Part shown: in pieces, positions 2,868 to 45,532 of the stretch | Layout of the letters: each line of letters begins with the position of its first letter | Numbering within the stretch: the stretch's first letter is position 1 | Source of the DNA: a virus | Lineage: Duplodnaviria; Caudoviricetes | IMG/VR virus record: IMGVR_UViG_3300025078_000002 | Location: 10,830-74,829 of that record | Reading direction: 5' to 3' (one strand) | DNA: 64,000 nt | Translations under genes and position numbers: made by a program | The notes under the pieces: model-generated | Database searches by the model: none | What the model was told of the DNA's origin: nothing | What the model saw: only the letters and a program-made list of their open reading frames with translations

Positions 2868-2891
2868 ATACTTACTCTTAAAGGAGTAAGT
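2868..2891 (+). promoter_or_regulatory. ATACTTA box plus hairpin sequestering the SD of the downstream endonuclease
   Basis: ACTTACTC (2870-2877) pairs with GAGTAAGT (2884-2891) over AAGGAG; ATACTTA at 2868-2874. Confidence 0.6.
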
Positions 2892-2892
2892 T

Positions 2893-3660
2893 ATGGTTAG
2901 AAAAAGTACACAAGTAACATTGATATGCACAAATTGTGCTTGCGAATATAAAAAACTTGCATCAAGAGCAGAAAAATCAAAGTTTTGTTCTAAGTTATGC
3001 AAAGATAAAAAGTCAATACAATATAAGATTGAAAAATGTGTTAGCTGTCAAGAGGAGTTTAAATCTAAAAGAGGAAAGAAATATTGTTCTAGAGACTGTT
3101 ATATCAAAGAGCACAAGCATGAAAGAATGGATTTGACTTGTGACTACTGCGGCGATGTTTATCAAAAACCTGTTGGTAAACCTACGAAATATTGTGGTAA
3201 GCAATGTCAGTATAAGGCTCAAAGCAGCGGTTTACATGAAATACCTTCAAATGGTAGGTTAGGTTTTAGATATGATTTGCCGAGCAATTACTTTTTTAAG
3301 TCATCTTTAGAGGCAGACTATGCGAGATGGTGTGAAGCTACAAAAAAACCTTATGTTTATGAGCATAAAACATTTACAGTTCAATATGATGGAAGAGACA
3401 AGCAGTATACACCGGACTTTTATCATCCCGATGAGGATAGATATGTAGAGTTAAAAGCAATAAGAAGAGATAGGAAGTTTAATTCTAATCTTCTAGCTGC
3501 AGATATTTTAAAGCAGCAAGGGCTTAATATCGATGTGTTGTTAATGCATGAATTTTATAAAATAATAAAACAAAGTGGTCATTATTGGACAGTTGACAAT
3601 ATAGAAAACAAAAATTATCATGGAACAAGAAGACTTATATATCTTAAGAAAACACAGTAA
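2893..3660 (+). CDS. Free-standing PD-(D/E)xK endonuclease with N-terminal Cys-rich zinc-binding repeats (putative homing endonuclease)
   Basis: Repeated CxxC...YCSxxC units, then FKSSLEADYAR, YEHKTF, YTPDFY...YVELK. Confidence 0.75.
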   Translation: MVRKSTQVTLICTNCACEYKKLASRAEKSKFCSKLCKDKKSIQYKIEKCVSCQEEFKSKRGKKYCSRDCYIKEHKHERMDLTCDYCGDVYQKPVGKPTKYCGKQCQYKAQSSGLHEIPSNGRLGFRYDLPSNYFFKSSLEADYARWCEATKKPYVYEHKTFTVQYDGRDKQYTPDFYHPDEDRYVELKAIRRDRKFNSNLLAADILKQQGLNIDVLLMHEFYKIIKQSGHYWTVDNIENKNYHGTRRLIYLKKTQ

Positions 3661-4831
3661 AGGATTCGCGGCGTTAACTATAGTTTTGTTGGCTGCAGTC
3701 TTATCTATACTGTCATACATAGTAATACAATACGGAAGGATTTCTCTTAATGTTGTTGAAGAAAAACAAAGTTTAGATTCGTGTAGCGTGGGAGTAGGAA
3801 GAAGTATTATCAGCACAAACGATATTGAGAGTATTTGTTCTAGTGGTTTTTTGAATAGCTGTAGTGGTTTTTTGAACATGCCTGTGCCGAACATGAGTTG
3901 TGTTGACGAAGGATTAGAGTGTGATGGTGTAGGTATATGTGAAAGAGTTTTTACTATATCATCTACGTACAATCCTGGTCGTGGAGAAGTTTCCAAGGAT
4001 GTTGTAGTTAAAGTCAAGGAAGAAGAGCATGATGTGAGTATTGTAGACGCTGCTGTAATAATGTTGCTTGATTTTAGTGGTTCTATGAATGGAAATAGAA
4101 TTACACAGTTAAAAGACACAGTAAGGTCATTTATAGATTCTGATTATAATCTAAGTTACTCTGTTATTCTTTATAATAGCGACATTATAACAACATCAAA
4201 TATTGGAAAAGGTCAGCAACACAAGCAATCTATACACACTATAATTAACAGCAATAATCCTGGCGGTGGGACAAATTTTGTAAAGCCTTTGAACGAAGCA
4301 TTAAATCAAATACAAACTAGCAATTACGAAGTATACTACATACTTTTGATAAGTGACGGCTCACCAAACGAAGGTATAGACTCTTCGCAAAACTTTGTTC
4401 AAAATAACGTATTAAGCTTGAACAATGATGCATGTTTATTTACTACATCACAAAATCCTTGTATTACAGTATATACTTTGGGTGTTGACAATGCAAACCA
4501 GAGTGCTTTGCAAAGTATAAGTGGAAATACTCTTAGTCAAAATCCAGAAGAGTATAGTTATGCAGTCAATGCTAATCAAGTGCAATTAGCATTTCAAGCT
4601 ATTATAGAAGAGATAATGTGTAGAATAGGACCGGTTTTAGCTGAGTTACCTATTAACGTATTTAATGGTTTAGACTTGTTAGATGAAAACATTGATTATG
4701 TATATAATGAAGATACAAAAGTGTTTAAGTTTTATGATGTTGATCCATTTTATATCTGTACTGAAATGTTGAATGATAGTGCACAATTAACTTTAAGATG
4801 GGGAGACGTGAATTTAAATGTTAGCGAGTAA
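3620..4831 (+). CDS. VWA-domain protein with TadG/pseudopilin-like N-terminal membrane anchor
   Basis: KG|FAALTIVLLAAVLSIL hydrophobic helix; MIDAS DFSGS, GGGTNF, ISDG. Confidence 0.75.
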   Translation: MEQEDLYILRKHSKGFAALTIVLLAAVLSILSYIVIQYGRISLNVVEEKQSLDSCSVGVGRSIISTNDIESICSSGFLNSCSGFLNMPVPNMSCVDEGLECDGVGICERVFTISSTYNPGRGEVSKDVVVKVKEEEHDVSIVDAAVIMLLDFSGSMNGNRITQLKDTVRSFIDSDYNLSYSVILYNSDIITTSNIGKGQQHKQSIHTIINSNNPGGGTNFVKPLNEALNQIQTSNYEVYYILLISDGSPNEGIDSSQNFVQNNVLSLNNDACLFTTSQNPCITVYTLGVDNANQSALQSISGNTLSQNPEEYSYAVNANQVQLAFQAIIEEIMCRIGPVLAELPINVFNGLDLLDENIDYVYNEDTKVFKFYDVDPFYICTEMLNDSAQLTLRWGDVNLNVSE

Positions 4832-5146: not shown

Positions 5147-5159
5147 TCATATCTGGATT

Positions 5160-7949: not shown

Positions 7950-7979
7950 GTGTAAATATAAATATAATGTTGTTATAAT
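7950..7979 (+). promoter_or_regulatory. Putative promoter GTGTAA-N18-TATAAT for dnaE
   Basis: Exact motif, repeated at several intergenic sites in the window. Confidence 0.65.
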
Positions 7980-8005: not shown

Positions 8006-8923
8006 TTGTCTATTGATTTAATAACTCCACCAGACAGGTTTGTTTCTCTTCATTCTCACTCAACTTTTAGCACTTTTGATGGATTAGGTTACCCATCAGA
8101 TCATATAGACTTCGTACTTTCTGAATCACAAGGTATGGATGCCTGGGCGTTAACAGATCACGGTAATGGTAACGGTCTTGCTCACGCACACTCGCACGCT
8201 GTCAAAATGCAAAAGGCTGGGAAAAAGTTTAGACAAATCTACGGAGTCGAATTCTATTTTGTTCCCTCACTAGATCAATGGACTAATGACTACGCAGCTC
8301 ATAAACAAGCAATTAAAGATGCTAAAACAGCAGCAGCTGCTGAAAAGAAAAGTAAAGAAAAAATCATCATTGATGCTGATGATGAAAGCGGTGGTCTTGT
8401 TATAGAGGATGAAGATGAATCCAAAAAGATTGATATCCTTAAAGACGAATGGAAACGTCGCTATCACTTAGTCGTCACAGCAAGAAATAGAAAAGGCCTT
8501 AATAACCTATTCACTCTTGTAAAGAAGTCATATAAAGACGGCTTCTATAGATACCCACGCATTGACTTTAAAATGCTTAAAGAACACGGCGAAGGCTTAC
8601 ACGTAAATTCTGCATGTTTACACCCAGACACATCTTTACAGACGTCAGCTGGAAGTTTATCTATTAAAGAAGTTGTAGAAAGATTTAACAAAGGTGAAGA
8701 AATTCAAATTCTTTCTTACAATGAATATACTAGCAAAGCTGAGTTTAAAAAAATTATTTGGGGTGATAAAACACGAAAGAATGCTAAGCTATTAAGAATT
8801 AAAGACAAAGATGGGAATGAAATTAAACTTACTCCTGATCATCGTGTCCTTGTTAAGGTCAAAGGTTGGATTGATGCGAAAGATATTATAGCAGGAGACA
8901 AAATTATCAATATAAACCTCTAA
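8006..8923 (+). CDS. dnaE: DNA polymerase III alpha part 1 (PHP domain) fused to N-intein 1
   Basis: LHSHSTFSTFDG, ALTDHG, YGVEFY, HLVVTARN; extein ends VNSA before intein Cys1. Confidence 0.92.
   Translation: MSIDLITPPDRFVSLHSHSTFSTFDGLGYPSDHIDFVLSESQGMDAWALTDHGNGNGLAHAHSHAVKMQKAGKKFRQIYGVEFYFVPSLDQWTNDYAAHKQAIKDAKTAAAAEKKSKEKIIIDADDESGGLVIEDEDESKKIDILKDEWKRRYHLVVTARNRKGLNNLFTLVKKSYKDGFYRYPRIDFKMLKEHGEGLHVNSACLHPDTSLQTSAGSLSIKEVVERFNKGEEIQILSYNEYTSKAEFKKIIWGDKTRKNAKLLRIKDKDGNEIKLTPDHRVLVKVKGWIDAKDIIAGDKIININL
8615..8920 (+). mobile_element. Split intein 1, N-half (102 aa)
   Basis: CLHPDTSL block A, LTPDHRV block B, WIDAKDI..GD, then stop. Confidence 0.9.
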
Positions 8924-8951
8924 GACAATATACTTAGTATTGTCTAGGAGG
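8917..8951 (+). promoter_or_regulatory. SD-sequestering hairpin with ATACTTA in the loop
   Basis: AGACAATA (8923-30) pairs with TATTGTCT (8938-45), and CCTC with GAGG; ATACTTA at 8930-8936. Confidence 0.65.
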
Positions 8952-8959: not shown

Positions 8960-9910
8960 ATGAAAACAAAAAAGATTAATATATGGAAAATTAGAGAAGA
9001 AATACTTTTTTCATACTACGAAAAAGAAGAAATACAAAGTTTTATTGATAAACTTTATTCTTTTTCGATGATTTACCAGATGATTTTACGAGACAATAAA
9101 AAATGCTTTAATGATTTAAACATATCATTACAGACTTTTTCAACACTTTTAAAAGATAAAATTGGCTTTATACTTCACCCAAATAATCAAAAAACTTCAA
9201 CAGCGTTTAGGAGCCAATTCAAATTTCCTAAAAATACTACAATGGAAGAAATTGAAAATTATTATTTGAAGTCTTCTTTAAAAGGTCAAAAAGGTACAGT
9301 AAAGTCGAGAAAAAAATCTGGGAAACCTTACAATGAAAAACAGACTTTAGACTTTTGGTTAAGCATTACAAACAACAAAGAAGAAGCAATACAAAGTTTA
9401 GAAAAGTATAAAAGATCTAATTCTCCTTTTTGTATTGAGTTTTGGACTAAGAAAGGATTAAGTGAAGAGAATGCAAATAAAATAATCTCTGAAAGAGCTG
9501 TCAAAGGTGCGATTAATGCTCTTAAAAAAACATCACAGCCTAAAACTGAAAAGCGAATTGAATCTTTACTCAAGAAAAATAACATTGAATATTCTACGCA
9601 ATATCGAATATCACTAGATAAAGATGAAACTGTGTATAATAAAAAGTGCTATGTATATGACTTTTATTTACCTACATTTAATTTAATTATTGAATGTCAC
9701 GGTCTTTATTGGCATGCTCATCCTTCGTTATACAACGAAAACTCTGTATTAAACTTTCCAAGTGGACAAGTAAAAGCAATAGACGTTTGGAATTCTGATT
9801 TGTATAAAATGAAAGTTGCAGAAAAAAGAAATTACCGCTATATGACTATATGGGAAAATGAAATTGACAATACAATTAGTTTAATTAGAGATCGTGTAAA
9901 TATTGATTGA
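8960..9910 (+). CDS. Vsr/DUF559-like homing endonuclease between the halves of intein 1
   Basis: KTEKRI...YDFYLPTFNLIIECHGLYWH...YMTIWENE. Confidence 0.8.
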   Translation: MKTKKINIWKIREEILFSYYEKEEIQSFIDKLYSFSMIYQMILRDNKKCFNDLNISLQTFSTLLKDKIGFILHPNNQKTSTAFRSQFKFPKNTTMEEIENYYLKSSLKGQKGTVKSRKKSGKPYNEKQTLDFWLSITNNKEEAIQSLEKYKRSNSPFCIEFWTKKGLSEENANKIISERAVKGAINALKKTSQPKTEKRIESLLKKNNIEYSTQYRISLDKDETVYNKKCYVYDFYLPTFNLIIECHGLYWHAHPSLYNENSVLNFPSGQVKAIDVWNSDLYKMKVAEKRNYRYMTIWENEIDNTISLIRDRVNID

Positions 9911-9940
9911 TTGTTTTAAAATATAAAAAAAGGAATAATT

Positions 9941-10069
9941 TTGAAAGAAATTCAAACAAAATATATTGAAGTTGATCTAATTGAAGAGATAGATGAAACT
10001 TCTGATGTTTATGATATCACTGTCGAAGATAATCATAATTTTTTTGCTAATAACATTTTAGTTCATAAC
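9941..10069 (+). mobile_element. Split intein 1, C-half (43 aa)
   Basis: Block F VYDITV, block G VHN followed by Cys+1. Confidence 0.9.
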
Positions 10070-11191
10070 TGTTTAGGCGGGATTTTTAGCAATAGAATAC
10101 TCCGCGGCGTTGCACATGATAAGTCACGTGACGAAATCCAAAAAGATCTTTTAAACCTTACAGACAGATTTACAGACGCAGTTGGCATTGAAAACTTCAA
10201 ACTAGAACTACAGTTCAATAAGCTAAACAAACAACACGTTGTTAATGACTACCTCATAGAACATCATAAACTAACTGGCATTCCTCTCATCTCAACAGCA
10301 GATTCTCATTACCCGAGCAACGATAAATGGCAAGCAAGAGAGCTATACAAGAAACTTGGCTGGCTCGGTAAGAAAGATAACTTAACTCTTCCAGCATTTG
10401 AAGATCTTAAATGTGAGCTGTATCCAAAAAATGCACAACAAATGTGGGATGAGTTCCTTGAAGGGTACAAAGAACACGACTTCTATAAAGGGAACGAGCA
10501 GCTCGTTAAAGAGTCAATAGAAAGAACACACGACATTGCCTGGAATGACTTTGAAGATACATGGATAGATGTAAGCGCAAAACTACCAACAATAACAATA
10601 CCTAACAAGACGCCCTTTAAACACCTATCAGACTTGGTTAAAAACGCTCTCGTTACTGAAGGGTTACATACTAATAAAGAGTACGTAGATAGAGCTAAAT
10701 ATGAATTGTCTGATATTAAGTATCTTGGACACGAAGCTTACTTTATTACAATGTATGAGATCTTTAAAAAAGCTGAAACAAAGACATTATTTGGAGCTGG
10801 AAGAGGCTCAGGTGCGGGGAGTTTAGTTAACTACTTGTTAGGCATTACACAACTCGATCCAATTCCTTATAACTTGCTTTGGAGTAGATTCTTAGGCAGA
10901 CATAGATGTCTAGACGAAGATACTTACGTTATATCTGAATATGGTAAAAAGAAGATTAAAGATGTTAGTGAAGGCGAAAAAGTACTAACGCATACAGGTC
11001 AGTATAGAAAAATTATTGATAAGGCTATAACACAACACGATATGGCTGTTGAAATAAAATTTAATGGTCGTAAAATTATTTGCTCACCTAATCATCGTTG
11101 GATTGTTAATCGTAATGGTAACGAAGTAGAAACAATGGCATGCCATTTACAAAAAGGTGACAAACTAATTCGATTAGCCAGAGATAAATAA
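9941..11191 (+). CDS. dnaE: C-intein 1 + DnaE part 2 + N-intein 2
   Basis: VYDITVEDNHNFFANNILVHN|CLGG; TADSHY; GAGRGSGAGSLVNYLLGITQLDP; ends with an intein N-half. Confidence 0.92.
   Translation: MKEIQTKYIEVDLIEEIDETSDVYDITVEDNHNFFANNILVHNCLGGIFSNRILRGVAHDKSRDEIQKDLLNLTDRFTDAVGIENFKLELQFNKLNKQHVVNDYLIEHHKLTGIPLISTADSHYPSNDKWQARELYKKLGWLGKKDNLTLPAFEDLKCELYPKNAQQMWDEFLEGYKEHDFYKGNEQLVKESIERTHDIAWNDFEDTWIDVSAKLPTITIPNKTPFKHLSDLVKNALVTEGLHTNKEYVDRAKYELSDIKYLGHEAYFITMYEIFKKAETKTLFGAGRGSGAGSLVNYLLGITQLDPIPYNLLWSRFLGRHRCLDEDTYVISEYGKKKIKDVSEGEKVLTHTGQYRKIIDKAITQHDMAVEIKFNGRKIICSPNHRWIVNRNGNEVETMACHLQKGDKLIRLARDK
10907..11188 (+). mobile_element. Split intein 2, N-half (94 aa)
   Basis: CLDEDTYV, CSPNHRW, LQKGD, then stop. 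Confidence 0.9.
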
Positions 11192-11200
11192 AGGAATAAA

Positions 11201-11341
11201 ATGAAAGACAATAATCTATACGAGATTGAGGAAATCAACTTTGTACATTACGATCAAGATATGATTGATATTGAAGTAGAAGGCGATCACACTTTCTACG
11301 TTTCAGAAGACCCCATGAATGAATTTATCTTGACACATAAT
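11201..11341 (+). mobile_element. Split intein 2, C-half (47 aa)
   Basis: DIEVEGDHTFY...THN followed by Thr+1. Confidence 0.88.
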
Positions 11342-11980
11342 ACAAGCTGGCCGGATATTGACACAGATGCTGGAGACCGAGATGAGCTGATCAACGCAGC
11401 AAAAGAGTTATATGGCGACGATGCTGTTATTCCAGTATCAAACTTTAACACGCTTAAGCTTAAATCACTTGTAAAAGACATTGCAAAGTTTTATGATATT
11501 CCATTTGACGAAGTCAATAAGGTAACTGGTCCTCTTCAAGATCAAGTTATGCAGAAAGCAATGGATAAAAATCAAGAAAAGTCTGTATTTGTTCTTAAGC
11601 ATGAAGACTGCATGAAATATTCACCAGAGTATAACGAATTTATGACAACATATCCAGAAGTTGCTGAACATGTAGATACTTTGTTTATGCAAAATAGAAG
11701 TTGTTTTACTAAAGATACACATATCTTGACTGATCGTGGTTATATGGACATTGAAGAACTTAATCCTGTGTCTGATGGAATTGTTTATATTGACAATGAA
11801 GGCAATCAAAAAGTTAATCACGACTATGAATTGCATTATATGGGTAAAAAAGAAGTGTTTGAAATTGAAACAGAATGTGGAAAAAAGATTAAACTTACTC
11901 CAGATCATGAAGTTATGACCCAAGATGGGTATAAAAAAGTATGTGAACTAAGTGAAAGTGATATATTGATTAAATTTTAA
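11201..11980 (+). CDS. dnaE: C-intein 2 + DnaE part 3 + N-intein 3
   Basis: IDIEVEGDHTF...THN|TSWPDIDTD (catalytic PDIDxD motif). Confidence 0.92.
   Translation: MKDNNLYEIEEINFVHYDQDMIDIEVEGDHTFYVSEDPMNEFILTHNTSWPDIDTDAGDRDELINAAKELYGDDAVIPVSNFNTLKLKSLVKDIAKFYDIPFDEVNKVTGPLQDQVMQKAMDKNQEKSVFVLKHEDCMKYSPEYNEFMTTYPEVAEHVDTLFMQNRSCFTKDTHILTDRGYMDIEELNPVSDGIVYIDNEGNQKVNHDYELHYMGKKEVFEIETECGKKIKLTPDHEVMTQDGYKKVCELSESDILIKF
11702..11977 (+). mobile_element. Split intein 3, N-half (92 aa)
   Basis: CFTKDTHILTDRG, LTPDHEV, GYKKVCEL, then stop. Confidence 0.9.
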
Positions 11981-11986: not shown

Positions 11987-12018
11987 CACCGCTTGCATAT
12001 AGTTAATAGCAGGAGGTG
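11987..12018 (+). promoter_or_regulatory. SD-sequestering hairpin with ATAGTTA in the loop
   Basis: CACCGCTTGC pairs with GCAGGAGGTG (one mismatch, one GU) over AGGAGG; ATAGTTA at 11999-12005. Confidence 0.6.
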
Positions 12019-12026: not shown

Positions 12027-13013
12027 ATGTTATGTAAAATTTGTAATAAAGAATATAAAAATCTTGGAAGACATGTAAGTGTTCATTATAAAAATGTAAA
12101 GTCTAAGTCAAAAAAAATGTTATATTTTCATGATATTTATAAAAACAAGTATGATATTGCTCGTGAGTATCTTGAAAGTAAAAAGTCTGCCAACCAAATA
12201 GCAAAAGAAGTCACACAACTATTTAATCTTTTTCCAGTTCAAAAAGGTGATATTTTAAACTTCTTAAAATATATGAAAGTTAAAAAAAGAACAACTTCTG
12301 AAGCTGGTAAAGAGTATTACAAAGAAAATCCTGTTTGGAATAAAGGTTTGACTAAATATGATCATGCAAGTATAGAGAAATATGCAGATAGTAGAACTGG
12401 AAAGAATAATCCAATATACTCACTTACTGAAAAAGAAAGAGAAGAAAAGATTTATTATTGGCGATTTAAGTCTGATGATGAACTCTTTGCAATAAGAGCT
12501 AAGATCGGAAAATCATTAAAGGAAGGTTATGCTTCAGGCAGAATAAAACATATATCTAAAACACATCCAGAAAAATTTAAAGAAATACACGCGAAAATGC
12601 TGTCTGGATATTTTGATGCATTAAATAATGGTACCATTAAAAGACAAAGTTACACATCTAGTTATGAAAAAAGAATAGCAAATATTCTAGAAGAGTTAGA
12701 CATAAGTTTTATACAGCAGAAGTCTTGTAATAAAAAATATAGGTACGACTTTTTCTTGAAAGACTTTAATCTTTATATTGAATTTAATGGTGACTACTGG
12801 CATGCTAATCCGAATCAGTTTAATGAAAATTATTATCATCCTCATAAAAAGATTTTAGCAAGAGAAATATGGGAGTATGATAATGCCAAGCGTGTAAATG
12901 TAATAAATAGTGGTTATAATTTTTTAACAATATGGGAATGTGACGTCAAAGAATTCAATAGACAGCACTTGAAGGAGTATATAATTGGAATTATTAAGAA
13001 TCAAAAGCATTAA
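12027..13013 (+). CDS. Vsr/DUF559-like homing endonuclease between the halves of intein 3
   Basis: N-terminal CKIC...H zinc finger, WNKG repeat, SSYEKRI...YDFFLKDFNLYIEFNGDYWH...TIWECD. Confidence 0.8.
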   Translation: MLCKICNKEYKNLGRHVSVHYKNVKSKSKKMLYFHDIYKNKYDIAREYLESKKSANQIAKEVTQLFNLFPVQKGDILNFLKYMKVKKRTTSEAGKEYYKENPVWNKGLTKYDHASIEKYADSRTGKNNPIYSLTEKEREEKIYYWRFKSDDELFAIRAKIGKSLKEGYASGRIKHISKTHPEKFKEIHAKMLSGYFDALNNGTIKRQSYTSSYEKRIANILEELDISFIQQKSCNKKYRYDFFLKDFNLYIEFNGDYWHANPNQFNENYYHPHKKILAREIWEYDNAKRVNVINSGYNFLTIWECDVKEFNRQHLKEYIIGIIKNQKH

Positions 13014-13122
13014 GAATACAAACACAATTCAACCCGTTTATGATATACATCATAATATTGATAATAAGAATTTTTATGATGAGCATCCCAATCTTATTGC
13101 AAACAATATTACAATATCAAAC
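12985..13122 (+). mobile_element. Split intein 3, C-half (46 aa)
   Basis: PVYDI...LIANNITISN followed by Cys+1; penultimate Ser instead of His. Confidence 0.85.
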
Positions 13123-14892
13123 TGTGGGCGTCACGCTGGGGGTGTTATTATAGCAGACGCAGACCTTCTTGAGCAATCGATGCCAATTGTTGGTGTTCGT
13201 GGAGAACTACAAACACCGTGGACTGAAGGTATGAACTTTAGGAATCTTGAAGACAACGGTTTTCTAAAGTTTGACTTCTTAGGTTTAACGCTTCTTAAAG
13301 ATGTAGAGAATTGCATTTATAGAATCCTAAGAAAAAGCGGAATGAAAAATCCTACATTCACAGATGCAAGAGCATTCTTTGATAAGCATTTAAACTGTAG
13401 GTTTGTCAAACAGGATGACCCTAAAGTTTGGGAACATGTGTATAAGGATGGTCACTTCGTTGGCATATTCCAGTTCACAAATCAGGGTGCTAGACAGTTT
13501 TCAATGGATGCATCGCCTGTAAGTATACAGGAGTTAGCAACAATTACTGCGATATATCGCCCTGGACCGCTTAAAGCAAATGTGCACAAGAAATATGTTA
13601 AGGCAAAAAACAATGCTAATGATATTGTGTACGATCATCCTATCATAGAAGAAGTACTTGGATATACTTACGGCTACTTTTGCTTTCAAGAGCAATTCAT
13701 GTTGATGGCACAAAAGCTTGCTGGGTTTTCACCGGGTGAGAGTGATAAGTTACGAAAGACGCTTGTAAAGAAATCACTAGATACTTTGCATTCTAAAGGA
13801 TCAGAAAAGGCAATTGCTAGAGAGAAGTTTATTAAAGGTGCCAAAGAGCTCAATGACATTCCTGAGAGTATTTCTTCGAAGCTCTGGCAAGACATAGAAG
13901 GTTTCGCAGTTTATGGCTTCAATCTTTCCCATGCAGTTGCATATGCTATTGGGTCGTATTATGCGGCATGGCTACATACACATCACGAGACTGAGTGGAT
14001 GGCAGCAATATTGCAATCTGAGAATGGTAATCCTAAAGGAATGTCAAAAGCCATTTCAGAGATTAAGTCATTTGGATATGAAATTGCTGCAATAGATATA
14101 AACCACTCTGAAGCTGAATGGGAATATTCTGATGTGTTGAAAGCTTTTGTGCCGCCGTTGACATCGCTTAAAGGAGTAGGTGATAAAGCTGTTGAAGAAG
14201 TATTTGAAAATAGACCATATAAAAACTTATCAGATCTATTTTACAATGAAGTAGGAGAATGGAGACATTCCAAGCTGAACAAAACAGCTTTTTCGTCATT
14301 AGCAAAGATGGAAGCATTTAAGTCTCTCCAGGAGTTTCAAGATGATGTATTAGATAATCATAAGCAAATGTATGATTTAATCTTGGATAACTATAATCTA
14401 CTCAAGAAAGGTAGATATGGAATGACAAAAACTGCCGTAAAAAGAGCGTTAAAGAATGATGAAGAGATTGTGCCTATTGTTGATGAGTTGATTGCGAAGT
14501 ATAAGGTTGTTAGTGATTGGAGTAGGAATGAAAAGATTAAGAACTATTTTGAACTCAGTAATGACGCAAGTGACGACCTATTGTTTCCACCTAGATTATT
14601 GAACAAGTTAAAACAGAAAGAAATCTCCAGTGTGTTTGATATACCTTCTGGAGATCGTGGTATTGGATGGTTTACAGTGACTGAGGTTATTCGTAAGACG
14701 ACTAAGAACGGGAAGGCGTTTATGAGGTGGAAGTGTGTAGACTCAGACAATCGTAGCGGATGGTTACGAGTTTGGGGGTCATTAGATGGCGAGGTTGAGT
14801 TTAGTACGTGGCTTGCTGATGTGAAGAATGATGCTGGATGGGGAATGTCTACGAATCTAGGTAAGCTTAAAAAGATTAACGCTTTTGATTAA
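12985..14892 (+). CDS. dnaE: C-intein 3 + DnaE part 4 (fingers/HhH/OB)
   Basis: VYDI...ISN|CGRHAGGVI; KFDFLGL; GIFQF; YRPGP; FQEQFM; YGFNLSHA. Confidence 0.93.
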   Translation: MELLRIKSIKNTNTIQPVYDIHHNIDNKNFYDEHPNLIANNITISNCGRHAGGVIIADADLLEQSMPIVGVRGELQTPWTEGMNFRNLEDNGFLKFDFLGLTLLKDVENCIYRILRKSGMKNPTFTDARAFFDKHLNCRFVKQDDPKVWEHVYKDGHFVGIFQFTNQGARQFSMDASPVSIQELATITAIYRPGPLKANVHKKYVKAKNNANDIVYDHPIIEEVLGYTYGYFCFQEQFMLMAQKLAGFSPGESDKLRKTLVKKSLDTLHSKGSEKAIAREKFIKGAKELNDIPESISSKLWQDIEGFAVYGFNLSHAVAYAIGSYYAAWLHTHHETEWMAAILQSENGNPKGMSKAISEIKSFGYEIAAIDINHSEAEWEYSDVLKAFVPPLTSLKGVGDKAVEEVFENRPYKNLSDLFYNEVGEWRHSKLNKTAFSSLAKMEAFKSLQEFQDDVLDNHKQMYDLILDNYNLLKKGRYGMTKTAVKRALKNDEEIVPIVDELIAKYKVVSDWSRNEKIKNYFELSNDASDDLLFPPRLLNKLKQKEISSVFDIPSGDRGIGWFTVTEVIRKTTKNGKAFMRWKCVDSDNRSGWLRVWGSLDGEVEFSTWLADVKNDAGWGMSTNLGKLKKINAFD

Positions 14893-14904: not shown

Positions 14905-15471
14905 CTAAAATCTGTAAGCATCAATGTCTTGTTGCGACATTAAACCAGACTGCTGCAAAAACATTTTAAAAGCTTCGCTTTCGTTTGATATACCGACAAA
15001 AAGTTTAGAAGGACCACCAGCTACACGACAAGCCTTAAAAAATTCTTCTTCAAGCATATCAATTTGATTCTTCATGTCAGCACGAAACTTGTCTTGAAGT
15101 TGTCTGTTTTCAAACGCCTCGAGAATAATGTCAATCGAACCAGCTACGGTAACACCTACGCTAATTGTAGTTAAAGCTGAACCTGCAATTAATGCAGGTG
15201 TCCCTACAGCTAACATTGCAGCCATACCAATTACAAAAGCAGAAACTCCAGGATAGTATTCTTGTATCTCTTGTCTTCCACTTGCACTTCTCATTGCGTT
15301 AACAGCTTCTTCCCAGCTGTTTACTTTTTGCCTTAAGATATTTGACTTTTCATGACCGCTAACACCTGCTAGCGCGTCAAAGTGATGCATATCACCCATC
15401 ATTTCATTTAATCGTGATTCTTTGATTACTTGTCTGATCAGCGATCGTAAACGTCTTTCTGTAATTTTCAT
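14905..15471 (-). CDS. Leader-bearing hypothetical protein with a hydrophobic hairpin
   Basis: MKITERRLRSLIRQVIKES leader; VIGMAAMLAVGTPALIAGSALTTISVGVTV segment. Confidence 0.75.
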   Translation of the reverse strand: MKITERRLRSLIRQVIKESRLNEMMGDMHHFDALAGVSGHEKSNILRQKVNSWEEAVNAMRSASGRQEIQEYYPGVSAFVIGMAAMLAVGTPALIAGSALTTISVGVTVAGSIDIILEAFENRQLQDKFRADMKNQIDMLEEEFFKACRVAGGPSKLFVGISNESEAFKMFLQQSGLMSQQDIDAYRF

Positions 15472-15495
15472 ATTTGTTTTCTCCTAAAATATGTT
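15446..15495. repeat. 50-bp perfect direct repeat, copy 1 (leader 5' end plus RBS)
   Basis: cgtaaacgtctttctgtaattttcatatttgttttctcctaaaatatgtt is identical at 16072-16121. Confidence 0.9.
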
Positions 15496-15526
15496 CTTAA
15501 ATATGTTCTTAAATATGATAAAATTA

Positions 15527-15606
15527 TTGCTGATGTGAAGAATGATGCAGGATGGGGTATGTCGTCAAGCCTTGCTAAACTTAAAAAGATTAATGCGTTT
15601 GACTAA
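15527..15606 (+). pseudogene. Diverged duplicate of the last 80 nt of dnaE
   Basis: ADVKNDAGWGMSSSLAKLKKINAFD* versus ADVKNDAGWGMSTNLGKLKKINAFD* at 14813-14892. Confidence 0.9.
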
Positions 15607-15620
15607 GAGTTAAATTTAAA

Positions 15621-16097
15621 CTACATAATATATTTGTTAGTATCTGGGTCAATTTCCATAGGAGGATTTTGAACACTAAATACTCCTCTTTCCATAGCTA
15701 TTTGGTCTATTTTGCTAATAATCGACTTAAGCTGATCTATACTAAATTTATCACCATAATTATATCTCTCAATTGCATCACGATCTAAACCATATTGCTC
15801 AATTCTTGGATCTTCTGCAGACCGTCTGTCTGAATAAAAATTGTTGTTTACTTCAATCATATCGATGCCTTCTTTTTGACATACTTCTCTATATTTGAGC
15901 ATTTTTAACATATATTTTCTATCAGTATTGCCAGAGTATGATGTATCTGCCCATTCTCTATTTAACATTCTTCCCATATCTTTAATATAAGACTTTACAT
16001 ATTCTTCAACTTCTTCAACTTTAGGATCGTGGTTATCTATACTTTCTTTTATAACACTTCTAATAATTGAGCGTAAACGTCTTTCTGTAATTTTCAT
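15621..16097 (-). CDS. Leader-bearing hypothetical protein
   Basis: MKITERRLRSIIRSVIKES leader; body unrelated to 14905-15471. Confidence 0.75.
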   Translation of the reverse strand: MKITERRLRSIIRSVIKESIDNHDPKVEEVEEYVKSYIKDMGRMLNREWADTSYSGNTDRKYMLKMLKYREVCQKEGIDMIEVNNNFYSDRRSAEDPRIEQYGLDRDAIERYNYGDKFSIDQLKSIISKIDQIAMERGVFSVQNPPMEIDPDTNKYIM

Positions 16098-16121
16098 ATT
16101 TGTTTTCTCCTAAAATATGTT
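16072..16121. repeat. 50-bp perfect direct repeat, copy 2
   Basis: Identical to 15446-15495. Confidence 0.9.
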
Positions 16122-16122
16122 T

Positions 16123-16875
16123 TTAAGTATGTTCTTTGAACGTGTTTTTACTTTTGTCTAGTTTATATATATTTTTAATATCAAGTATACTTGAACTAAC
16201 GTACTTAACAGCATCTATATCGTTTGACATAATATAATCTATTGCAGTGGTATATTCTTGCATACTAAAGGACTTAAGTTCTTCCAAAGCTTGATAAACA
16301 ATTTCACCTGATTCTGATGCAAATGATTCATAAGATTTGTATCTTGAAAGAACGTGCATTTTACCTCCTTGCGGAACCAGAGCTGTGTGTGGAGATCCTG
16401 ATGAAAGTATTGGGTGAGGTCCACCTTTTACAAAGTGTTTTCGAATTACGCTTGATGTAAAACCGTTGCTTGTTAGTCTATCTATATTGTTTACATACCA
16501 GTCAACAAAAAATCCTGCACATATTTCTAAGTCTGGAAGAAAGTCAAGGTTATTTTTATAATCTTTTTCTACAATTAATAAATAATCAGCGTTATTATTG
16601 CTAAAAGCTTTTTCTAAAATCTTGGGTTTACAAAAAAAGTAGATACCTGATCCTTGTCCAGATGATGCTTGCTTTGTGCTTAAAGATGTAGCATTGTCTA
16701 ATTTAAGACCGCTGTTAAACTTTTCAGGAGGATAATGTGTAATATGATATAATGTTTTGCCTTCTGTATGTAGCTTGGCAATGTCACTAAGTGTTAGTTC
16801 TTCTTTTCTTTGTTCTAAGAGTATTTTCCACTCATACAACATATTTTTAAATTCTTTTTTAGAAAGTTTATTCAT
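16123..16875 (-). CDS. Leader-bearing protein, possible ART-like fold
   Basis: EWKILLEQ leader; LYHIT...GSGIYFF pattern. Confidence 0.5.
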   Translation of the reverse strand: MNKLSKKEFKNMLYEWKILLEQRKEELTLSDIAKLHTEGKTLYHITHYPPEKFNSGLKLDNATSLSTKQASSGQGSGIYFFCKPKILEKAFSNNNADYLLIVEKDYKNNLDFLPDLEICAGFFVDWYVNNIDRLTSNGFTSSVIRKHFVKGGPHPILSSGSPHTALVPQGGKMHVLSRYKSYESFASESGEIVYQALEELKSFSMQEYTTAIDYIMSNDIDAVKYVSSSILDIKNIYKLDKSKNTFKEHT

Positions 16876-16888: not shown

Positions 16889-16917
16889 GTGTAAATTTAT
16901 TTTAAATATTATATAAT
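16889..16917 (+). promoter_or_regulatory. Putative promoter GTGTAA-N17-TATAAT
   Basis: Exact motif upstream of the kinase/TS fusion. Confidence 0.65.
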
Positions 16918-40317: not shown

Positions 40318-41955
40318 ATGACCGACGTTATTTATTTTGACGAAGAAGCTCAAAACTCTCTAAAGAGAGGCGTAAAAAAAATATGTGATGCAGTTTCCAT
40401 AACTATGGGACCTAGAGGAAAGTTAGTATTGATTGAAAAGAATGGTGAACCTCCTCACTTAACAAAGGATGGCGCAACCGTTGCAAAATATATTAATCTT
40501 ACTGACAAGGTAGAAGATTTAGGTGCCAAGTTATTAAGGCAGGCTAGCGAAAACACAGCAACTGTTGCAGGTGATGGTAGCACAACATCAGCAGTACTAG
40601 CTAAGGAGTTTTATTTTAGAGCAGCGCAGGCTTTGCAAACAGGTATCGGAACACCTTCAGAGATAACGCATCTTCTAAATAAAAAAGTAACAGATATTAT
40701 TAATATTTTGTCTGAGAATGCTAAAACTGTTTCTTCAAACGAAGAGATTAAGCAAGTTGCAACAATTAGTGCAAATGGCGATGAATATATTGGAAAGCTA
40801 ATTGCTGACGCAATGTTAGAGGTTGGAACAGCTGGACTCGTAACAGTTGAAAAATCAAAGACTTCTGAGACAGAGTTGAAACTTGTAAGAGGCGTTAAGG
40901 TAGATAGAGGATATGTTTCGCCATACATGATTACAGACAATGAAAAGTCTAAGTCAGTTTTAGAAGATCCTCTTATTTTGATACTTTCTTGTAAACTTAG
41001 TTCTTTAACACAGATTTTACCAGTATTGGAAAAATGTCATCAAACAAAAAAGCCTTTATTTATTATCGCAAATGATTACGATCAAGAAGCAATACAAGCT
41101 TTAGTTGCAAACATATCAAAAGGGTTATTACAGATTTGTGCTATTCGTAGTCCTTTTTATGGAGAAAAAAGAAATCAAATATTAAATGATTTAGCGTCAG
41201 CATTGGGTACAAACGTATATTATGACTTAGACGAAAAAGATATTTCTAACATAGTTCTCTCAGATTTGGGCTCTTGCAAGAAAGTAGAAACAACAAATGA
41301 TACAACTTTGTTTGTCGAATGCTCTGGGTCTGAAAGTGTTGAAGATGTACTGGTTGATGTGCAAAAGAAGTTAGACGACAAATCAATTACAAAAGAAGAA
41401 GAAGCTTTTTATAAGCAACGTCTTATTATTAACAAGGGAGTTGTTGCAGTATTGTCAATTGGTGCACACACAGAATCAGAACTTCTAGAGCTAGTAGATA
41501 GAATTGATGATGCTTTGCACGCAACTAAAGCTGCTATGGAAAGTGGTTTTCTTCCTGGCGGTGGTATAGCTTTGGCACGTGCAGGTCTAGAACTTCTTCA
41601 TAAGACAAACAATAGCGAAGAAACTTTATTATCAAAAACTGCAACTAAAATAGTGTCTGATGCTTGTATGTCTCCTTTAAGAAGAATCTTGACTAACGCT
41701 GATATGTCAACAGATTATATAATGGAAATGATTAAAAACAATGACGACTGGACTTACGGATATGATGTGAGATCTGAGTCTTATGTAAATATGATTGAAA
41801 AAGGAATAATAGACCCACAGAAAGTAACAGCTACTGCTATTAAAAATGCTGTAAGTGTTTCTAATTCACTTCTTTCAGTGGGATGTGTAGTACTAAATAC
41901 AGAAAACTATAATCAAGGAGTACAACTAGTACAATTATCTGATGATATGTATTAA
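40318..41955 (+). CDS. groEL: GroEL-like chaperonin
   Basis: TMGPRG, TKDGATVA, AGDGSTT, DRGYVSPY, GGGIAL, GIIDP. Confidence 0.93.
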   Translation: MTDVIYFDEEAQNSLKRGVKKICDAVSITMGPRGKLVLIEKNGEPPHLTKDGATVAKYINLTDKVEDLGAKLLRQASENTATVAGDGSTTSAVLAKEFYFRAAQALQTGIGTPSEITHLLNKKVTDIINILSENAKTVSSNEEIKQVATISANGDEYIGKLIADAMLEVGTAGLVTVEKSKTSETELKLVRGVKVDRGYVSPYMITDNEKSKSVLEDPLILILSCKLSSLTQILPVLEKCHQTKKPLFIIANDYDQEAIQALVANISKGLLQICAIRSPFYGEKRNQILNDLASALGTNVYYDLDEKDISNIVLSDLGSCKKVETTNDTTLFVECSGSESVEDVLVDVQKKLDDKSITKEEEAFYKQRLIINKGVVAVLSIGAHTESELLELVDRIDDALHATKAAMESGFLPGGGIALARAGLELLHKTNNSEETLLSKTATKIVSDACMSPLRRILTNADMSTDYIMEMIKNNDDWTYGYDVRSESYVNMIEKGIIDPQKVTATAIKNAVSVSNSLLSVGCVVLNTENYNQGVQLVQLSDDMY

Positions 41956-42149: not shown

Positions 42150-42174
42150 TATTATATTAAAAAAAGGACATTAA

Positions 42175-42927
42175 ATGGCAATTGTTGATAAAAGATATTC
42201 TGAAATAATTAAAAACAATCCACTTTTAACCAAAAAACAGGAAATTAGTTTATCCCGACAGACAAAAAAGGGCGATTTATCTGCAAGAAAGAAATTAATT
42301 GAGTCAAACTATAGACTAGTTTTGTCAATAGCAAAGAAATATTATAGGAATGATATAAGTTTTGACGATTTATTACAGGAAAGTAGTATTGGTTTATTAA
42401 AGGCTGTCGATAGATTTGATCCAGAGTTAGGTTATAAGTTTAGTACTTATGCTTGTTGGTGGATCAAACAAGCAGCTTTGCAATATATTAATGAGAATTG
42501 TACTAATATAAAGGTGCCAACTCATTCAAGACTTTTAAACGCAAAAATCAAAAACAAGATAAAGCAAATTGAAGATGATGAAGGTAAAAGACCCACGTTA
42601 GAAAGAGTATCTGAAGAGCTTGGTGAGAATGTTAATAAAATAAAGTATACTTTAAAGTCAAATAGATACATTGCATCTATTGATGCAAGTAGAGATGATG
42701 AAGGTAATACTTTGGCATCAAAAATTGCTGATGAGTCTGATTTTATTAACCCAGAAGCTCGTTTAGAAAAGAAAGAATTAAAGCGAATAATCAGAGAAAG
42801 TCTAAGTCTTCTTACGCCTAAAGAAGAAAAGATTATACGACTAAGATTTGGTATTACAGAAGACGAATATAACAATGAAAACTTTTCGTTGACAAACAAA
42901 ATGATTGGATATCTTAATGAAGACTAA
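42175..42927 (+). CDS. Sigma70-family RNA polymerase sigma factor lacking region 4.2
   Basis: LIESNYRLV.SIAKKY, DLLQE..IGL..AV.RFD...GYKFSTYA.WWI.QA, LTPKE..IIRLRFG, then stop. Confidence 0.88.
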   Translation: MAIVDKRYSEIIKNNPLLTKKQEISLSRQTKKGDLSARKKLIESNYRLVLSIAKKYYRNDISFDDLLQESSIGLLKAVDRFDPELGYKFSTYACWWIKQAALQYINENCTNIKVPTHSRLLNAKIKNKIKQIEDDEGKRPTLERVSEELGENVNKIKYTLKSNRYIASIDASRDDEGNTLASKIADESDFINPEARLEKKELKRIIRESLSLLTPKEEKIIRLRFGITEDEYNNENFSLTNKMIGYLNED

Positions 42928-43177
42928 AAAATATGTAACTGTGACTAATAGTAATGGATTAGGTTTGTATGATGTTGCTAAAGTTATGACCAGTAACGGC
43001 GACAAAATGAATCATTCTACTGTTAGAAATATTATTAATAGATCATTTTTTAAATTAGCAAAGAACATTAGTGATAATTATAGTTTAGACTATGATGCTA
43101 AAAAAATTGATTCTATATCAAAGTCGCCTGAATTTCAAGAATCAATTGTAGACTTATTAAGAGAAAAAGAATTATGA
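42917..43177 (+). CDS. Sigma4-like HTH protein
   Basis: GLYDVAKVM...MNHSTVRNIINRSFFKL; overlaps the sigma stop by 11 nt. Confidence 0.55.
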   Translation: MKTKKYVTVTNSNGLGLYDVAKVMTSNGDKMNHSTVRNIINRSFFKLAKNISDNYSLDYDAKKIDSISKSPEFQESIVDLLREKEL

Positions 43178-43446: not shown

Positions 43447-43588
43447 TGAGCTATTTCCTTATGAATACGTAAGAAATTATTTTCATAATAGAAAAAGAAA
43501 AGTAGAGAAAATAATTAATAGCGAATTATCTGATACAATAGAAAAAGATAAATACGAGAAGGTAGACAAAAATGAAGAAACAAGATGA
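43427..43588 (+). CDS. Small hypothetical protein (53 aa, not in the ORF track)
   Basis: MKKIQFNELFPYEY...; fills the gap and overlaps both neighbours. Confidence 0.4.
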   Translation: MKKIQFNELFPYEYVRNYFHNRKRKVEKIINSELSDTIEKDKYEKVDKNEETR

Positions 43589-43793
43589 AGATGAATTGCT
43601 ATTAATTGTAGCTCTCGGTAAATCATTTAACGGGACAACTTTAAACCCTGAAGAATGTGAAAAAATATGTAATATGACAATTTTACAGCTTATTACTTCG
43701 TTAAGCATCAATGAAACTCAAGCAAACTTGCTATATAAGTGGGCTTGCGCTTGCAGAAAAGGATTTGCTCAAAATGAAAAAGATAATTGCTAG
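43572..43793 (+). CDS. Hypothetical protein
   Basis: 73-aa ORF. Confidence 0.55.
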   Translation: MKKQDEDELLLIVALGKSFNGTTLNPEECEKICNMTILQLITSLSINETQANLLYKWACACRKGFAQNEKDNC

Positions 43794-45516
43794 TTTACTT
43801 CTTTTAATACTATTTAATTGTTGTTCTAACATTTCAAACAAAGAGTTAGTAACAATTAAATCTGTTAATGATCAAGTTACTTCTGGCGAAATGATTAAAT
43901 TTGACATTGAATCAGAAGTAGTTATTGACCAAGTTAAAAGCTTTCTAGTAGGAAGTGATGGTGTAACTTATGAAACATATAACGGAGTTTTAGAAAATAA
44001 TCAATTTACTATAAATAGATTTTTAAATACTAATATACCTTACGGACAAAACTATAATCTACGTTTTGTTTTAGATACAGAAAATAATCAATATATTAGA
44101 ACTATGCCAGTTAACATTGATGCTTCAGTTATTGTCGATTCATTTTGTGCTAGCGAAAACTGTCAAGTGTTATCAAGCAACGTTGTAGAAGGAATAAAAA
44201 ACAAACTTACAATTGGGTTTTACAATATTTTACCTGTAAAGATAAAGTATGTGGTAACTACTCCCGATGATAACTTTCAAATATTACACGAGTTTAACTC
44301 TCCAGTTCAAGAAGACTGGGTTGAAAACTTAATGTTTAACAAAGTGAAAGAAGAGTATTCATCTTATATTTCTAAAATAGAGATATTTGCTTATGACGCA
44401 GATAATAATGAAGCAAAAACTGAGTTGCCTTTTAGAGTAGTTAGACCTATTGAAGTAAAACATTTTGGTAACTATGAATTAGCTGAGTTTTATGAACCAA
44501 TTCCAGTCACTGGGTGTATACCCGGATCAGTTGGCAATAACGTGCAATATTCAGAATCACAAACTGAGACACGTCAAAATAGTGTTTCTATTGGATTCAA
44601 TAAAAGCTGGAGTGACAGTAATACAACAAATCTAAATACAACAATGTCTGAAGGCATTTCTGTAAATCAAACAGACTCAACTGTCAATACATCTTCATTG
44701 TCTGAATCCGAAACTCAGTCAGAAGGTTTTACAGATACATCATCGCAAGGAGAAAGCAACAATATACAGTTTAATACTACAGACGGTGAAAACTGGTCTT
44801 GGTCTTTAGGCGAGGGTGATTCTCAAACTTCTGGGACTTCGCAAGGTGAAAATACTAATACTAGCGTAAATGGTTCAACAACAGTTGGTGTAAGCGGTGA
44901 AGGTTCATTGCCTTTCTTAGCTAAAGCCAGTGGTAAGGTTGAAGTTAGTGCAGGAATACAAAGAGGATGGGGAAATACAAACACTAGTTCTGAATCTTCT
45001 ACATCTAGCACAAATAGAGGATATACTTCAGGCGGATCTTCGCAAAATGGACGTTCGTTTGGGAGTACCCAGAATGATTCTAGAAGCTACTCGTTAAACG
45101 GCGCATATGTTTTATCTAGTTCTACGTCAAACGCAATTTCTGAATCATCCTCGTTATCTTCAGGCAGGGTATGGAATATGTCTGAGTCTATTAGTAGCGG
45201 TAAAGTAATAACAGAAGGTAATAGCGAAAGTTTATCACAGACAATAGTTACATCAGAAAGTAGTAGTACTACGTTTAGTTATAGCGGTTATATTCCAAGA
45301 GGAAGATTTGGAACGTTTTTTAGACAAACTAGCAGGTATGTAAAATTATCAGAAATTATTACCTATACTTTAGACGGATACCCGCAGCACGCGGGTTACG
45401 TTATGATGAATACTTGGGCTTGGGCACCAGATTTATCAATCGGTTCATCGTGCGAAGAAGCAGGTATTTCTAGTCTACCTGCAAGTGAATGCTTAATACC
45501 TCCTTGCGGCGAATAG
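43774..45516 (+). CDS. Predicted lipoprotein with Ser/Thr-rich aerolysin/ETX-MTX2-like C-terminal region
   Basis: MKKIIASLLLLILFNC signal; alternating S/T tracts flanking GVSGEGSLPFLAKASGKVEVSAG. Confidence 0.6.
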   Translation: MKKIIASLLLLILFNCCSNISNKELVTIKSVNDQVTSGEMIKFDIESEVVIDQVKSFLVGSDGVTYETYNGVLENNQFTINRFLNTNIPYGQNYNLRFVLDTENNQYIRTMPVNIDASVIVDSFCASENCQVLSSNVVEGIKNKLTIGFYNILPVKIKYVVTTPDDNFQILHEFNSPVQEDWVENLMFNKVKEEYSSYISKIEIFAYDADNNEAKTELPFRVVRPIEVKHFGNYELAEFYEPIPVTGCIPGSVGNNVQYSESQTETRQNSVSIGFNKSWSDSNTTNLNTTMSEGISVNQTDSTVNTSSLSESETQSEGFTDTSSQGESNNIQFNTTDGENWSWSLGEGDSQTSGTSQGENTNTSVNGSTTVGVSGEGSLPFLAKASGKVEVSAGIQRGWGNTNTSSESSTSSTNRGYTSGGSSQNGRSFGSTQNDSRSYSLNGAYVLSSSTSNAISESSSLSSGRVWNMSESISSGKVITEGNSESLSQTIVTSESSSTTFSYSGYIPRGRFGTFFRQTSRYVKLSEIITYTLDGYPQHAGYVMMNTWAWAPDLSIGSSCEEAGISSLPASECLIPPCGE

Positions 45517-45532
45517 TTATCTTAAAAGGAGG
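45499..45532 (+). promoter_or_regulatory. SD-sequestering hairpin with ATAGTTA in the loop
   Basis: CCTCCTT (45499-505) pairs with AAGGAGG (45526-532); ATAGTTA at 45513-45519. Confidence 0.6.

Follow-up and report, generated by a model that had tools for sequence, protein, structure and literature searches.

In bacteriophage T4, the genes e, soc, 49, and I-TevI, and likewise mobE of phage Aeh1, are held back on read-through RNA by sequestration of the Shine-Dalgarno (SD) sequence and/or the AUG, and the DNA for the 5' strand or loop of the sequestering hairpin holds a short, AT-rich motif of the -10-only type (PMC3014915, PMC2988022). The genes regulated in this way include homing endonucleases as well as gene 49, a resolvase that is counted among the classic hairpin-gated genes (PMC3014915). 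Hairpins have also been found by Dassa et al. (2009) in 15 of 16 endonuclease 5' untranslated regions (UTRs) of fractured genes, DnaE loci included, and ten of these hairpins carried the T4/Aeh1 late motif TATAAATA (PMC2677866). Here we describe hairpins that mask the initiation regions of three nuclease genes, and an octamer, nATAnTTA, that lies in or at their 5' strand or loop, in a 64,000-nt stretch of viral DNA (hereafter the window; bases 10830-74829 of the 74.8-kb contig of IMG/VR record IMGVR_UViG_3300025078_000002; G+C 31.7%). The original prediction for this DNA had seen in such hairpins a convergence of unrelated nuclease genes on a timing switch; as a convergence it is not new, given the hairpins already reported before fractured-gene endonucleases (PMC2677866). 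The principle is already known, fractured DnaE genes included; what is gained is detail and generality.

The three genes lie on the plus strand and comprise an Endo I-like gene (nuclease gene 1; 2893-3660; 255 residues) and two homing endonuclease genes, HEG_A (8960-9910; 316 residues) and HEG_B (12027-13013; 328 residues). All four inverted repeats of the original prediction (sites 1-4), and the 7-mer ATA(C/G)TTA that it had noted with them, are present at the positions it gave. Hairpin 1 (site 1; 2870-2891) consists of 9 bp formed by 2870-2878 (ACUUACUCU) and 2883-2891 (GGAGUAAGU) around a 4-nt loop and sequesters GGAG together with the spacer; the 3' part of the octamer GATACTTA (2867-2874, in which the earlier box occupies 2868-2874) is its 5' arm. 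Hairpin 2 (site 2; 8917-8951) is built of 5 + 9 bp, with GGAGG at 8947-8951 paired; the octamer TATACTTA (8929-8936) reaches over the stem top and the loop, and the 5' arm contains the stop (8921-8923) of dnaE piece 1. Hairpin 3 (site 3; 11987-12018) pairs CACC.CUUGC with GCAGG.GGUG, again with GGAGG paired, and is topped by the octamer TATAGTTA (11998-12005), the first three bases of which close a 3-bp terminal helix while the rest form the apical loop; the upstream stop codon (11978-11980) ends 6 nt before the arm.

We folded each leader over -45 to +6, derived z-scores from 200 dinucleotide shuffles, and ranked stability among the 90 called leaders of the contig (mean -4.4, standard deviation 3.4 kcal/mol). 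The minimum free energies at sites 1-4 are -11.3, -17.4, -12.7, and -9.5 kcal/mol, with z-scores of -2.64, -4.27, -2.64, and -0.92 and ranks of 6, 1, 2, and 10 of 90. Opening the region from -16 to +3 of the leader costs 12.2, 15.3, and 11.0 kcal/mol at sites 1-3, against a median of 4.7 kcal/mol for other leaders. These three leaders also have unusually strong SDs, most genes of the genome having weak AAGGA-type sites. The hairpins at sites 1-3 are real signals beyond chance, and site 4 is indistinguishable from chance. That a hairpin hides the SD before all three nucleases is upheld by z-scores of -2.6 to -4.3 and ranks of 1, 2, and 6 of 90, and hairpins comparable to those of sites 1-3 are not common before all genes, an outcome that the original prediction had named as one that would refute it.

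Site 4 does not belong with the others. Its hairpin (45499-45532) pairs CCUCCUU at 45499-45505 with AAGGAGG at 45526-45532 across a 20-nt loop, and it precedes orf67 (45538-45741, plus strand), a small conserved open reading frame (ORF) that shows no sign of encoding a nuclease. We drop it because its 5' arm encodes the Pro-Pro-Cys of the conserved ...PPCGE end of the upstream protein, because its octamer AATAGTTA (45512-45519) includes the TAG (45514-45516) that is the upstream gene's stop codon, because the orf67 orthologues in the related loci L021, L022, and L026 have neither hairpin nor box, and because the homologue in L022 begins 1 nt past the upstream stop. Together with the z-score of -0.92, this removes site 4 from the recurrent hairpin as it was first drawn; the site is probably a coincidence or a case of translational coupling rather than part of the system.

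The comparison was extended through relatives of the phage. Megablast of 12 kb against cultured phages matched no close cultured relative, and the tblastn matches of dnaE piece 4 were all below 30% identity; a dnaE search returned 20 related IMG/VR loci (labelled L001, L002, and so on), one of which is a complete 239.5-kb genome with terminal repeats, and the contig is therefore a fragment of an uncultured marine jumbo phage. From these and further loci we gathered leaders of HEG_A orthologues (L001, L030), of HEG_B orthologues and distant homologues (L032-L046), of Endo I-like genes (L003, L006, L007, L009, L018), and of a fourth endonuclease in dnaE piece 4 (L018, L019). The nuclease leaders collected represent 11 hairpin designs with unrelated sequences, some burying the SD and others the AUG. 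Their median opening energy is about 12 kcal/mol, compared to 4.7 kcal/mol in 401 other leaders (Mann-Whitney p = 2e-7), and their SDs match 5.9 bases on average against 3.2 elsewhere. The core helix is conserved in the orthologues of both HEG_A and HEG_B, and the lower stem of hairpin 2 is kept in L001 and L030. Pairing holds in 93% of cells across the Endo I-like leaders, as opposed to at most 65% when the partner is slid, and the n position of the octamer covaries with its partner (CG 7, UA 3, AU 1, GU 1, UG 1) more than in 499 of 500 shuffles. Judged from these comparisons, nuclease genes in this phage group have been selected for a masked initiation region, and the specificity of SD- or AUG-masking hairpins for nuclease genes holds both in the window and in the relatives (12 vs 4.7 kcal/mol). 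We regard such masking of nuclease initiation regions by hairpins as very probable. As a separate observation, orthologous acidic proteins at L010:4491 and L012:4588 are preceded by very stable hairpins (-27 and -24 kcal/mol) that mask both SD and AUG; their stems are unrelated in sequence, and their loops carry GATAGTTA and GATATTTA.

The genes behind these leaders are not all unrelated, and one of them is probably not a selfish element. HEG_A and HEG_B are paralogues (28% identity) with Vsr-like/EDxHD homing endonuclease signatures, HEG_A being free-standing inside split intein 1 of dnaE and HEG_B lying inside split intein 3. A profile of their family matches 3r3p ('Mobile intron protein', I-Bth0305I-type; 1.4e-6) and Vsr 1cw0 (0.004), residues E252, G255, W258, H259, and D285 are invariant, and the Pfam Vsr domain (PF03852) is present in some homologues. 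By these matches, the two genes, with a C-terminal nuclease domain of Vsr fold, are members of the Vsr-like/EDxHD family described with fractured genes. The Endo I-like protein combines zinc-ribbon repeats with a T7 endonuclease I-like PD-(D/E)XK domain: its profile matches the T7 endonuclease I structure 1m0d at 2.3e-4 over residues 141-200, and Phage_endo_I (PF05367) is detected in 8 of 18 homologues (best 8e-6), the window protein itself falling below threshold. The gene is represented by more than 118 protein clusters and occurs at 51 IMG/VR loci, most of the relatives included, often directly 3' of the same epimerase gene (e.g. L003, L007, and L009). With this distribution, a core gene of resolvase type, like T4 gene 49, is more probable than a selfish element, and the gene at 2893-3660 is probably not a homing endonuclease there. 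A caveat to the core-gene reading is a 307-residue Endo I-like paralogue that occupies the middle dnaE split intein of L018 (L018:1079-2002). The description of the three genes as unrelated selfish nucleases consequently needs correction, two of them being paralogous and the third probably a widespread core gene.

The box has a more complicated record. As written, ATA(C/G)TTA (ATASTTA) is not enriched in the window, where 44.5 matches are expected and 41 occur; when leaders are drawn at random in threes, a 7-mer of this kind is common to all three in 7-16% of draws, and masked leaders show no excess of boxes over unmasked ones. ATASTTA does occur in 8 of 90 leaders against 1.6 expected, with three of the eight being the sites of its discovery. 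In leaders with the box or a near-box, its TAG is the upstream stop codon at -5343, at 45513, and, once the gene start has been corrected, at 18400. Given a 7-mer without enrichment and the frequency of shared 7-mers, we first favoured pure chance as the origin of the box and dropped that view after the orthologue sets had been assembled. ATASTTA gains meaning because it is part of a wider octamer, nATAnTTA: the earlier 7-mer is, as these alignments read, the window's version of a real and wider element, so that the box in its original form goes without enrichment and finds its place within a conserved octamer.

Specifically, the loop in 13 orthologous HEG_B leaders reads GCATATAATT(A/G), with TATAGT confined to the window's own clade. 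Across 10 HEG_B leaders the nucleotide diversity of the octamer is 0.044, equal to that of the SD, as compared with 0.19 in the 5' arm, 0.33 in the 3 hairpin-top nucleotides beside the octamer, and 0.27-0.35 at third codon positions. The HEG_A orthologues (n = 3) have TATACT, TATAGT, and TATAAT, and all hexamer changes in the HEG_A and HEG_B sets (TATAAT, TATAGT, TATACT) fall at hexamer position 5. Position 5 is the least constrained position of the sigma-70 -10 element. Among 39 distinct Endo I-like leaders, 32 have nATAnTTA at -25 to -32. In about 20 of the Endo I-like leaders the octamer is the 5' helix strand, its CAU pairing with the AUG and the rest with the spacer; the six other box positions never vary in these leaders, though covariation would be possible, and the octamer is retained where it is looped or unpaired (L048, L085, L049, L089). 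The original placement of the box is borne out in one further respect, since a transcript starting just 3' of the conserved element would lose the 5' arm.

Whether the octamer acts as a promoter has to be weighed against the promoters that the phage group evidently uses. The main class, (G)TGTAA(A)-N17/18-TATAAT, counts 49 sites in the contig and related loci, nearly all of them just 5' of genes, and in the window these include 7951-7979, 16890-16917, 60236-60264, 60749-60776, and 61137-61165. ATAnTTA keeps apart from this class: it accompanies a TGTAA/TATAAT promoter on only 1 of 31 such genes in the complete relative, the 239.5-kb genome that we used for gene-block counts, and on 0 of 11 in the contig. 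In the complete relative, ATAnTTA stands before 20 of the 71 genes in the large-gene block and before 3 of the 78 in the small-gene block (p = 5e-5), and TGTAA/TATAAT shows the reverse distribution (1 of 71 and 17 of 78; p = 8e-5). Among the genes there that bear the box are those for the large terminase (TATACTTA at -24), for an adaptor-like protein, for virion proteins, and for a further homing endonuclease; the wider box accordingly goes with packaging and structural genes and is scarce in the early block. Positionally, ATAnTTA ranks first of 20 composition-matched permutations at -42 to -18 (z of about 3), with its peak at -40 to -33. A candidate reader of a -10-only promoter class, on domain content, is the sigma-70-family protein encoded at 42175-42927 (plus strand), in which regions 1.2, 2, and 3 were recognised and region 4 was undetected. 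Taken together, these observations make the octamer a plausible core of an internal promoter. Since the nuclease leaders are unlike the TGTAA class, any promoter at the octamer would belong to a -35-independent class, and ATAnTTA is a testable candidate for a second promoter class beside TGTAA-N17-TATAAT.

Several observations weigh against a promoter function for the octamer. The nuclease-leader octamers lack the GTGTAAA -35 box, and on a position weight matrix (PWM) of the phage promoters the leaders are at background level: those of the window score 1.1, -3.4, and -0.8 and those of HEG_B orthologues 5.7-9.3, where real sites score 15.5-26.9. The last three bases of the octamer differ in the HEG_A orthologues of L001 and L030 (TATAGTAT, TATAATAT), and in the Endo I-like leaders pairing with the AUG and spacer would explain much of the conservation of the box. 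The strict form CATAnTTA is found before only 6 genes in the complete relative, which makes it weak as a general late promoter, and the relaxed form ATAnTTA is common in AT-rich leaders (17%) and has no tie to masked leaders generally. A -10-like hexamer occurs in 7 of the 11 nuclease designs, which is not above the background of 41% (p = 0.11), and with a start 5 nt downstream of the octamer, no more than 1-4 nt of RNA would precede the SD. Promoter activity of the octamer is inferred from sequence, whereas in T4 the late promoter, the transcript 5' ends, and a roughly 100-fold translational effect have been measured (PMC3014915, PMC2988022).

Other promoter candidates were set aside. The TGTAA at 2853, considered as a -35 element for site 1 (TGTAA-N16-GATACT), persists in L054, whereas L079, L072, and L071 have TGCTA in its place. 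A generic sigma-70 scan was uninformative, returning 100 sites against 97 expected, and the four sites are absent among the matches listed. Copies of the T4 late motif TATAAATA show no positioning before genes in the window, 2 of the 17 lying near starts. A promoter-in-hairpin layout does exist for bona fide members of the TGTAA class: at L010:3996, L012:3288, and contig position 8063 (window -2766, just outside the window), the 5' arm or loop of a hairpin that masks the SD is specified by the spacer or -10 of the promoter, which lends indirect support to a promoter at the octamer; the genes in L010 and L012 are deoxyribosyltransferase-like. We also note that the best sigma-70 match of the first 20 kb (3593-3621; TTGACA-17-TATCAT; 11/12) falls within the 3' end of the Endo I-like gene, immediately 5' of a VWA-domain gene, and that a 90-residue ORF at 42905-43177 without a Pfam or PHROG match overlaps the sigma-70-family gene.

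We hypothesize the following scheme. The leaders of the three nuclease genes would fold into local helices that bury the SD, or the AUG instead in many relatives, such that the nuclease ORFs are poorly translated from long transcripts initiated upstream, for instance at the dnaE promoter (7951-7979). This masking step is established as far as sequence allows. The octamer of the 5' strand or loop is similar to a sigma-70 -10 element, with A at -11, T at -7, and a free position at -8, and in a second step it may serve as the core of a -35-independent and possibly late promoter. Transcripts from it would start some 5-8 nt downstream, just 5' of the SD, and would be translated for want of the 5' strand. 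Such a design would be of the type of T4 e, soc, 49, and I-TevI and Aeh1 mobE, and the Endo I-like gene would stand to it as gene 49 does in T4. We put the odds at about even that the mechanism is this known T4-type gate with release through an internal promoter. A further and joint reading, to which we give somewhat less credence, takes nATAnTTA as the -35-independent late core of these marine jumbo phages of about 240 kb, read by their own sigma factor, in which region 4 was undetected, and, embedded in the masking hairpins, gating all DNA-cutting enzymes along with packaging genes; it would mean that the T4 late switch had been invented a second time, independently, out of other parts. The parts differ: the window group has TATA(A/G/C)TTA within nATAnTTA in place of TATAAATA, both in comparison to T4 and in comparison to fractured genes (PMC2677866), and it has a sigma-70-family protein, with no homologue of gp55 or gp33 having turned up, albeit in searches not aimed at them.

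Much of the same leader geometry could be accounted for by constitutive attenuators or translational-coupling devices without any internal promoter, with nuclease output always low; for the intein-borne genes, ribosomes finishing the upstream dnaE piece would melt the 5' arm and a fraction of them would re-initiate, and the octamer would be conserved as an anti-AUG and anti-spacer strand or for other reasons at the RNA level. We consider this account possible and on balance unlikely. The MS2 coat-replicase pair is the type case of translational coupling through a structure that occludes the ribosome-binding site (RBS), and, as there, the 5' arms at sites 2, 3, and 4 lie in the upstream ORF or within reach of its stop. 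The upstream stop is inside the 5' arm at site 2 and likewise in L001 and L030; at site 3 it precedes the arm by 6 nt, and at site 4 and in L034 it falls in the loop; the arm is coding in L034, L018, and L019, the whole masked region of the L018/L019 endonuclease gene lies inside an upstream ORF, and the orf67 homologue in L022, 1 nt after its upstream stop, is classic coupling. With a stop in or near the 5' arm, terminating ribosomes must therefore open these hairpins, which would couple translation of the endonuclease gene to that of the dnaE piece before it. The CAU of the box pairs with the AUG, and its TTA with a spacer TAA, in about 20 Endo I-like leaders, and the leaders are at background on the phage promoter PWM. 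Coupling geometry (an arm contained in the upstream ORF or no more than about 15 nt from its stop) is, however, absent from site 1, which lies 37 nt past the stop; site 1 and the leaders in L003, L007, and L009, 19-37 nt beyond the stop, are out of ribosome reach, unlike the MS2 arrangement. Moreover, the short intergenic space in an intein forces a hairpin near the stop, so the geometry alone is not evidence of selection for coupling. Coupling also has no need of a conserved octamer in the loop; in HEG_B the octamer is looped out, unpaired with the initiation region, and yet conserved like the SD, the six fixed box positions show no covariation in the Endo I-like leaders although pairing permits it, and ATAnTTA has a gene-class bias in the complete relative.

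That HEG_B loop sequence is conserved independently of pairing would equally suit an operator, in RNA or DNA, for autorepression by the nuclease or for a RegA-like repressor, with the hairpin presenting the site. Autorepression of I-TevI at an operator overlapping its own late promoter is documented (PMC2988022), and tandem CATATTTA repeats with a 12-nt period, found before the minus-strand genes at 14905-16097 and in relatives, resemble a binding-site array. A nuclease-specific operator is unlikely, as the same octamer is found upstream of terminase and virion genes as well as of three unrelated families of nucleases, and no RegA-like gene was identified; we consider this explanation improbable. 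Chance, by which AT-rich leaders with strong GGAGG SDs find CCUCC-like complements and an AT-rich 7-mer recurs accidentally, fits site 4 (z of -0.92, a coding arm, and a stop in the box) and the unenriched 7-mer, shared 7-mers being frequent in random leader triples. Sites 1-3 are, by contrast, outliers relative to both shuffles and all other genes, and the masking recurs in 11 unrelated designs with covariation and loop conservation, leaving chance disfavoured for sites 1-3 and as a general account very hard to credit. Gating by RBS hairpins, with release at an internal promoter, is the most likely reading, and the extension of hairpin gating of nuclease genes from T4-like phages to non-T4-like, DnaE-encoding jumbo phages is backed comparatively by the 11 hairpin designs, the covariation, and the loop conservation. 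The tandem repeats just mentioned are an observation in their own right: 12-nt units of (G/A)AACATATTTAA in 2-4 copies on the minus strand (15472-15620 and 16098-16131) lie directly 5' of the small minus-strand genes that follow dnaE, with the same array in L004, L018, L019, and L039, and could be promoter repeats or a protein-binding array.

The setting of HEG_A and HEG_B conforms to that of fractured genes, in which the pieces carry intein halves and a separate endonuclease ORF, Vsr-like or GIY-YIG, lies between them. The dnaE gene consists of four same-strand pieces whose ends and beginnings are intein halves (Pfam PHP, DNA_pol3_alpha, and Intein_splicing/Hint): piece 1 (8006-8923; a PHP domain and an N-intein half), piece 2 (9941-11191; a C-intein half, extein, and N-intein half), piece 3 (11201-11980), and piece 4 (12985-14892), all on the plus strand, with HEG_A and HEG_B as free-standing ORFs between intein halves. 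In most relatives, dnaE is uninterrupted (e.g. L002-L006 and L020). An intein-split dnaE with a free-standing Vsr-like ORF, in marine viral DNA, hairpins in the endonuclease 5' UTRs, and an endonuclease 3' end overlapping the next piece, here HEG_B over dnaE piece 4 by 29 nt, are all as described by Dassa et al. (2009; PMC2677866). Unlike those cases, three split inteins interrupt a single gene here, the middle one is without an endonuclease (pieces 2 and 3 being only 9 nt apart, at 11192-11200), and the phage is not T4-like: its polymerase is a DnaE, it encodes a sigma-70-family factor of its own, and its genome measures about 240 kb. Beyond these, L018:3539-4528 and L019:6858-7844 have a further insertion in dnaE piece 4 near residue 320, an ORF of 328/329 residues whose hairpin-masked start lies inside the upstream ORF.

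The cassettes also carry their own way out. Each intein-borne endonuclease cassette ends with a consensus promoter of the TGTAA-N17-TATAAT type that would restart transcription of the next dnaE piece. A consensus promoter before piece 1 (7951-7979; plus strand, as are the following; TGTAA-N18-TATAAT; PWM 25.1) is followed by a promoter-like site spanning the 3' end of HEG_A just 5' of piece 2 (9895-9922; TGTAA-N17-TAAAAT; PWM 18.8) and by a second consensus promoter within the 3' end of HEG_B that serves piece 4 (12893-12920; TGTAA-N17-TATAAT; PWM 23.1) and is conserved in L032, L033, and L037. No terminator-like site was found on the plus strand between 8000 and 15000. With promoters in the 3' ends of the endonuclease genes (9895-9922 and 12893-12920), the downstream dnaE pieces are independent of read-through across them, and the early mRNA need not read through the nucleases within dnaE, contrary to the original prediction. 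Embedded outward promoters are known for the T4 seg and mob genes (PMC2988022), and Dassa et al. (2009) had proposed signals for transcribing the downstream piece within the element, to which the promoters at 9895-9922 and 12893-12920 correspond (PMC2677866). A cassette composed of a masked RBS, a nuclease ORF, and an outward promoter helps to explain how a polymerase gene cut in four is tolerated.

Elsewhere in the window, Rfam gave no match, and relatives of the 1966-residue and 520-residue proteins, sought for intergenic comparison, were not found. A GroEL-type chaperonin gene (Cpn60_TCP1; 1.4e-58) lies at 40318-41955, and a cluster at 55279-58899 of IMPDH/GMP-reductase-like, adenylosuccinate synthetase-like, and adenylosuccinate-lyase-like genes may represent auxiliary genes of purine metabolism.

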